A stretch of 64,000 nt of DNA from Escherichia coli (GTDB lineage Bacteria; Pseudomonadota; Gammaproteobacteria; Enterobacterales; Enterobacteriaceae). Below, in pieces: positions 6,875-7,265 of the stretch. The stretch is taken from assembly GCF_045037415.1 (NCBI RefSeq), contig NZ_CP173438.1. The stretch is one strand, 5' to 3'. The first letter of the stretch is position 1; every line of letters begins with the position of its first letter. The position numbers were made by a program, and so were the translations under genes. The notes below the pieces were generated by a model that saw only the letters and a list, made by a program, of their open reading frames with translations, was not told the DNA's origin and did not search any database.

Positions 6875-7265
6875 CATTAATGTCGGATGCGGCGTGAACG
6901 CCTTATCCGACCTACACTCGGCACCCGTAGGCCGGATAAGATGCGTCAGCATCGCATCCGGCAACGCGCACAGGATAACAAATGTGCCATTAATGTCGGA
7001 TGCGGCGTGAGCGCCTTATCCGACCTACGTTCGGCACCCGTAGGCCGGATAAGATGCGTCAGCATCGCATCCGGCAACGCGCACAGGATAACAAATGTGC
7101 CATTAATGTCGGATGCGGCGTGAGCGCCTTATCCGACCTACGTTCGGCACCCGTAGGCTGGATAAGATGCGCCAGCATCGCATCCGGCAACGCGCACAGG
7201 ATAACAAATGTGCCATTCATGTCAGATGCGGCGTAAACGCCTTATCTGACCTACGTTTGGCACCA
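6875..7265. repeat. Tandem BIME/REP array: three full copies of a 113-bp unit plus one partial copy
   Basis: Unit cattaatgtcggatgcggcgtgaacgccttatccgacctac...gtaggccggataagatgcgtcagcatcgcatccggcaacgcgcacaggataacaaatgtgc recurs at 6875, 6988 and 7101, with a degenerate copy from 7214. Each unit holds two REP palindromes in opposite orientation. Confidence 0.9.

Follow-up and report, generated by a model that had tools for sequence, protein, structure and literature searches.

The window analyzed here, a 64,000-nt stretch of Escherichia coli DNA, carries speB (5923-6843, +), which encodes an agmatinase of polyamine synthesis, and loiP (7273-8031, -), which encodes a metalloprotease, both named after the annotation of a genome that is 100% identical in this region. 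The two genes converge, and the 429 bp between their stop codons (6844-7272) are extragenic and hold a tandem repeat that the 3' UTR of speB enters from the left and that of loiP from the right. Tandem Repeats Finder reported only one array, at 6869-7264, with a period of 113, 3.5 copies, 95% matches, no indels, and a score of 708, and an independent seed-and-extend repeat search placed the copy starts at 6869, 6982, and 7095, with identities of 98% and 93% over 170 nt. The period of 113 was recovered by both searches, in agreement with a sequence-only reading of this DNA, which had described a tandem 113-bp array of 3.4 copies recurring at 6875, 6988, and 7101. Unit 2 differs from unit 1 at four positions and from unit 3 at two, and divergence is highest in the terminal half unit. 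On the other side of speB, an open reading frame of 243 aa (5056-5787, +) lies between speA and speB and has a lipoprotein-type signal peptide (MKKWKLRSALIALAVLLAGCSS); it is called a "hypothetical protein" in identical genomes, has no Pfam match, and is missing in K-12, whose speA and speB genes are 137 bp apart.

Positions 6500-7700 are 100% identical to many complete E. coli genomes, including EC958, JJ1886, and many O25b:H4-ST131 strains. Judged by this identity, the window carries the ST131-type 3.5-copy allele, and an assembly artefact is ruled out because about 500 complete genomes have the identical sequence. In the K-12 RefSeq record, the speB-loiP gap is without any listed repeat feature.

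The repeat unit can be divided into four parts: a 35-nt y REP, an 11-nt linker, an inverted 37-nt z2 REP, and a 30-nt linker. The gap consists, in order, of a 37-nt left flank, three such units, a fourth 35-nt REP, and an 18-nt right flank, and the array thus reads y-z2-y-z2-y-z2-y. The REP foot motif GTAGGYCKGATAAG, searched with up to one mismatch, occurs seven times in the array, four times on the - strand and three times on the + strand, and at 10 sites in the 64-kb window, where 0.04 are expected from shuffles. The seven REPs alternate in strand (-,+,-,+,-,+,-), each with a GTAGG foot. The first y-type REP (6881-6915, -) has its GTAG foot at 6915 and matches the Y hairpin of the Rfam family naRNA4; after it come the S-type linker that separates the CTAC foot from the GTAG foot (6916-6926, ACTCGGCACCC) and the first z2-type REP (6927-6963), which is 37 nt long and has its GTAG foot on the + strand. 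The second y-type REP (6994-7028, -), the second z2-type REP (7040-7076, +), and the third y-type REP (7107-7141, -) were each delimited by foot motif, parsing, and naRNA4 alignment, and the third z2-type REP (7153-7189, +), a variant with GGCTGG (GCGCCAGC), by foot motif and parsing. The 11-nt S-type linkers of units 2 and 3 (7029-7039 and 7142-7152) read GTTCGGCACCC, and the 30-nt linker, which joins the ends without GTAG (6964-6993, 7077-7106, and 7190-7219), reads ACGCGCACAGGATAACAAATGTGCCATTAA. The fourth y-type REP (7220-7254, -) is the most diverged y (TGTCAGAT...ATCTGAC), with compensatory changes in its stem.

The flanks themselves resemble parts of the repeat. The left flank (6844-6880) begins with a degenerate z2-REP remnant, a small predicted hairpin (GCGCCAGATAAGAGGCGC, 6844-6861) directly 3' of the speB stop codon, continues as a shortened l-like linker (GCACGGGTGATGTGTCATTAA), and is similar to the z2 + l sequence of the array, of a 47-bp E. 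coli allele, and of the allele of E. whittamii. The right flank (7255-7272) combines what is left of an S-like linker (GTTTGGCACC) with a further 8 nt that reach the loiP stop codon. By these resemblances, the whole 429-bp gap, flanks included, is BIME-derived. The limits of 6875-7265 first given for the array are therefore too narrow for the homology, which extends over the entire gap. Elsewhere in the window, two more REP-foot-like matches, with one mismatch each, lie at 19098-19111 (+) and 46337-46350 (+), and a single REP (10393-10406, -) lies just past the tktA stop codon; next comes a prohibitin-family gene (10507-11415, -) that K-12 does not have there. In strain C4, four REPs lie downstream of tkt.

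Each REP is predicted to fold, as single-stranded DNA, into a hairpin in which a lower stem of 7 bp is separated by a 2x2 internal mismatch from an upper stem of 4-5 bp, capped by a loop of 4 nt. The predicted energies range from -8.8 to -12.9 kcal/mol (z -4.5 to -5.4), y REP 1 being at about -11 to -12 kcal/mol (z about -4.5 to -4.8), y REP 4 at -8.8 kcal/mol, and z2 REP 1 at -12.9 kcal/mol (z -5.4). Both strands of the gap fold far more stably than shuffled sequences (z -9.4 and -9.6). In the alignment to naRNA4 (RF02564), the Y hairpin falls on the 35-nt REPs and the Z2 hairpin on the 37-nt REPs, with compensatory substitutions. Compared with the published K-12 sequences (Nunvar et al.), 32 of 35 positions are shared with Y and 31 of 37 with Z2, and in our own comparison the differences at stem positions are compensatory pairs or restore pairing. 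The alternating foot strands, the predicted hairpins, and this alignment bear out the original description of each unit as a pair of oppositely oriented REP palindromes. It was equally correct that this is not a CRISPR array: the units are contiguous, all inter-REP segments are themselves repeated, and unique spacers are absent.

The y/z2 REP arrays of E. coli are termed BIME-2 in the classification of Gilson, Bachellier, and Hofnung. In such elements, y+z2 pairs follow one another in tandem, and a short S linker is combined with flanking linkers of the s, l, or r type (Ton-Hoang 2012). The array is a BIME-2-type element, and every BIME-2 feature testable here is found in it: y and z2 REPs, a GTAG foot with a stem mismatch, alternating orientation with a short linker, tandem copies, and an extragenic location. 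The 30-nt linker occupies the position of a BIME-2 flanking linker and is longer than the approximately 11-13 nt of the element REP325; the call leaves the s/l/r motif of this linker aside, and "atypical BIME" is thus a formally possible label. The K-12 allele of the locus has been listed as "BIMEs2 ... 146 bp ... yggG>-<speB" (Sutormin 2019, Table DS3), a label that is used loosely in that table, where single REPs of 20-35 bp are also listed. The K-12 element between yggG (loiP) and speB occupies the same locus and has the same y REP, 11-nt linker, z2 REP, and 30-nt linker family as the window. It reads y-z2-y in a 205-bp gap, whereas the window has two more units (seven REPs instead of three) and a few SNPs in linkers and flanks. 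Like BIME-2 elements in general, the array is tandem, extragenic, at gene 3' ends, and polymorphic in length between strains.

To describe this polymorphism, we compared 59 chromosomes, spread by score rank over the 5,425 matching genomes among 5,426 complete ones, so that each row stands for about 90 genomes and the proportions are approximate. Six rows have the 1201-bp match span of the 3.5-copy allele, one has a span of 1090 bp (2.5 copies), 37 have spans of 975-977 bp (1.5 copies, K-12 included), three have spans of 862-864 bp (one y REP), and four have a span of 819 bp, with a 47-bp gap; in the remaining eight, which have an island allele, loiP alone was matched. The three-REP allele is the state of most E. 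coli. There are six length alleles, with one degenerate hairpin or 0.5, 1.5, 2.5, 3.5, or 4.5 copies, and two gene-island alleles. The intergenic lengths are 47, 90/92, 203/205, 316/318, 429, and 542 bp, and the repeat alleles that we parsed differ by exact 113-bp units. The largest, with 4.5 copies, was found with a synthetic 7.5-copy query in one genome, that of bovine isolate CE0007a, and the same query returned no allele of more than 4.5 copies. Copy number therefore does vary between strains, as first proposed, from 0.5 to 4.5 in other E. coli. In its exact unit-step length polymorphism between lineages, over 0.5 to 4.5 copies, the locus is like the minisatellites used in VNTR/MLVA typing; unlike an anonymous repeat of that kind, its unit is a structured REP pair of a family dispersed genome-wide, and its turnover is slow.

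The interval between speB and loiP is also a content-swap site, since about 14% of the sampled genomes hold genes there and no REPs. Three of the eight island rows were inspected: two have the approximately 7.6-kb dagR + D-glucosaminate PTS/dgaE/dgaF operon, and one has a DUF1266 gene. At the borders of these dga and DUF1266 island alleles, for which the comparison loci were L002, L003, L004, and L014, no REPs were found. The dgaF-loiP junction has a small inverted repeat (CCGACCTACAATTATGTTGTAGATCGG), the left arm of which resembles a REP tail.

Within the ST131-type lineage, copy number is much steadier. The z2-linker-y junction of the ST131-type allele was found in 556 genomes, with a median of three and a maximum of four matches per genome and a total of 1,609, which is about 25-30 below three per genome; among the full-identity rows listed, one of 38 had two junction matches. 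At most about 5% of the ST131-type lineage departs from three junctions, and approximately 95% of about 540 genomes keep three. The locus had been put forward as a candidate hypervariable one, and this is where that reading fails: it is polymorphic between lineages, yet the 3.5-copy allele is nearly fixed within ST131 and the locus does not mutate fast. Of the 1,609 junction matches, three are on plasmid-classed records, which is unexpected for a chromosomal intergenic repeat; these may be captured chromosomal DNA or misassigned replicons.

The 30-nt linker is locus-specific in E. coli, where its matches per genome equal the unit count and none is at another locus. Beyond E. coli, in a search of 100,044 species with one genome each, it was found only in Escherichia sp. 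E1V33, which has y-z2-y in a 205-bp gap, and in E. whittamii, which has y-z2-y-z2 in a 246-bp gap, in both cases between speB and loiP. In E. whittamii, the last REP of the array is a z2, with TAATAAAACGC after it. The E. coli allele of 47 bp is made up of one degenerate z2-like hairpin and, after it, TAATAAAATGC, and its ungapped identity to this array end is about 76%. Because it resembles the z2 end of E. whittamii, the "empty" allele is BIME-derived as well. On this sequence comparison, the element appears to be older than the divergence of these Escherichia species, and only its copy number appears to have changed since then.

Several alleles illustrate how units may be gained and lost. 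In strain A16, which is of the K-12 type, one unit is present as an exact duplicate. The allele of strain R7 equals that of the window except that an internal unit is missing, and its SpeB and LoiP proteins are the same as those of the ST131 type. In the one-REP allele L009, which has K-12-type flanks, the y REP is a hybrid to which K-12 y1 contributes the 5' half and y2 the 3' half. Since single-REP alleles carry such hybrid REPs, these losses are attributed to crossover within the repeats, and the A16, R7, and L009 alleles together imply independent gains and losses in both flank backgrounds. Copy number changes in exact 113-bp steps, which would arise through in-register unequal recombination or replication slippage between the repeats, or possibly through RayT. 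Homology-driven unequal exchange or slippage explains all alleles seen.

For this gain and loss step only, a rival is that RayT (TnpA-REP), acting on single-stranded BIMEs, catalyzes the change in copy number. The rayT gene is intact in EC958, which has the identical 3.5-copy allele, and all seven REPs retain both the GTAG foot and the mismatched stem required for binding by TnpA-REP. TnpA-REP also cleaves CT sites in iREPs and linkers and joins BIMEs in vitro, and models of unit addition have been published; these models of RayT-driven amplification rest on in vitro reactions (Ton-Hoang 2012). Against catalysis by RayT, the observed alleles all differ by exact in-register units, and a crossover inside the homologous 35-nt y, as in the deletion products with hybrid REPs, needs no dedicated enzyme. 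We therefore consider a RayT-catalyzed change rather unlikely, although it deserves consideration beside homology-driven exchange or slippage.

What a BIME-2 array would do at this position can be approached from its RNA and from its DNA. As RNA, transcribed from either strand, the seven stable hairpins would block 3'-to-5' exonucleases, and they would thereby set where the speB and loiP transcripts end, stabilize these 3' ends, and damp convergent read-through. REPs are known to resist 3' exonucleases and to stabilize the mRNA upstream of them, and they have been linked to Rho-dependent 3' ends and to attenuation. No intrinsic-terminator-like site was found in the 6844-7272 gap, and because of this the damping of read-through is assigned to the hairpins. 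At the RNA level, the array would most likely serve to define and stabilize the speB and loiP mRNA 3' ends. Counted directly, the distance from the stop codon to the first full REP is 37 nt for speB and 18 nt for loiP. REPs near stop codons reportedly cause ribosome stalling, in work ascribed to Liang, Rudd, and Deutscher in 2015, and the effect is said to need a distance of about 15 nt or less; we set aside such stalling here since both distances exceed this value. A sigma-70-like match on the - strand (7225-7198), inside the last unit, has CTGACA, a 16-nt spacer, TATCCT, and an upstream TG; it is probably there by chance, with one match found and 0.8 expected from shuffles.

The same hairpins raise the question of whether the array might also be a cluster of naRNA-like genes, from which loiP read-through on the - strand would yield three Y-linker-Z2 RNAs that bind HU; by analogy with naRNA4 from REP325, these RNAs would bridge cruciform DNA and condense the nucleoid. 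REP325 is a six-unit BIME-2 element between yjdM and yjdN in K-12, from whose Y-linker-Z2 unit the naRNA4 model was built, and like the window array it is tandem with Y and Z2 palindromes in each unit. The model matches every unit, giving three matches, each on the - strand and over the full model (1-77), with 47.7-50.2 bits and E values of 4.5e-08 to 1.6e-07. The abstract of Qian 2015 states that almost 80% of REPs are transcribed, and naRNA function, as summarized there, needs the two-hairpin Y+Z2 architecture and involves HU-dependent contacts among many REP loci. However, all matches are below the gathering score of 59.5, and even the best, at 50.2 bits, needs a 19-nt insertion in the linker; the inter-hairpin linker is about 11-13 nt in REP325 and 30 nt in the window array, and in this the two loci differ. 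Moreover, any E. coli y/z2 pair would match naRNA4, which argues for shared REP ancestry rather than shared function. An additional existence as naRNA-like genes thus seems improbable, and the stabilization of mRNA 3' ends is the role that we retain for the RNA.

As DNA, the array would be a preferred site of gyrase binding and cleavage where the positive supercoils of the converging speB and loiP genes meet. Within BIME-2, gyrase favors y REPs, and cleavage there rises when transcription is blocked (Sutormin 2019). In the K-12 allele of this very locus, two cleavage sites were mapped with oxolinic acid and two with rifampicin + ciprofloxacin, and none with ciprofloxacin alone or with microcin (Sutormin 2019, Table DS3). 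The K-12 allele is thus a weak or modest gyrase site compared with tldD-yhdP or sucB-sucC, and from it we infer that the longer window allele, with its four y REPs, would behave in the same way toward gyrase.

The sequence-only reading had such arrays bind IHF as well as gyrase. Cleavage mapped in the K-12 allele supports the part about gyrase, and the part about IHF does not hold. IHF would be recruited if the array were a BIME-1/RIP-type element, that is, a z1+y pair present once, its long L linker often carrying an IHF site (Ton-Hoang 2012). As a control we used the K-12 BIME-1/RIP element between yaaX and yaaA, and the window array does share with it an inverted REP pair whose GTAG/CTAC feet face the linker. 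This resemblance, that of paired inverted REPs, is a general one. Here, 11 nt lie between the CTAC and GTAG feet, compared with 35 nt in the control, whose L linker contains ATTCAATATATTG, whereas the IHF core WATCAANNNNTTR was found nowhere in 6844-7272 on either strand with 0 or 1 mismatch. Furthermore, the second REP is of the 37-nt z2 type, not z1, and the array is tandem, whereas BIME-1 is single-copy. A BIME-1 assignment is, accordingly, hardly credible, and the element is better described as BIME-2.

Nor is there any realistic prospect that the repeats encode small proteins: ATG-initiated ORFs do exist mechanically (6887-7123 and 7000-7236, of 78 aa each, and 7113-7280, of 55 aa), but a period of 113 is not divisible by 3, so that the frame shifts from unit to unit and each copy-number allele alters the product, the 78-aa ORF has no Pfam match, the NCBI pipeline calls no gene there in identical genomes, and REP hairpins and linkers fully account for the ORF sequence. 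The 78-aa ORFs had already been judged spurious when the array was first noticed, and the Pfam, gene-call, and frame results are in accord with that judgment. The stretch should be labeled a REP/BIME-2 repeat region, not genes, and the attribution to IHF should be dropped.

Taken together, we are highly confident of a joint explanation in which the locus is a BIME-2 array of 3.5 copies that would serve as a gyrase site and as a stabilizer of RNA 3' ends and would change copy number in 113-bp steps. The BIME class, the length polymorphism, and the gyrase cleavage of the K-12 allele at the speB-loiP locus are all already in the literature. For the ST131-type lineage, the 3.5-copy allele is a nearly fixed marker that can be sized by PCR. 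There is a slim chance that the seven-REP ST131 allele might differ from the three-REP allele in speB/loiP mRNA stability, read-through, gyrase loading, or contacts with HU and naRNA; if it does, BIME copy number would be a slowly evolving "dial" for expression or topology and not neutral junk. The alleles form a clean natural series at one locus, with one hairpin, then 1, 3, 5, 7, and 9 REPs, plus island replacements, and this series is ready material for relating REP number to mRNA 3'-end stability and to gyrase loading between convergent genes.
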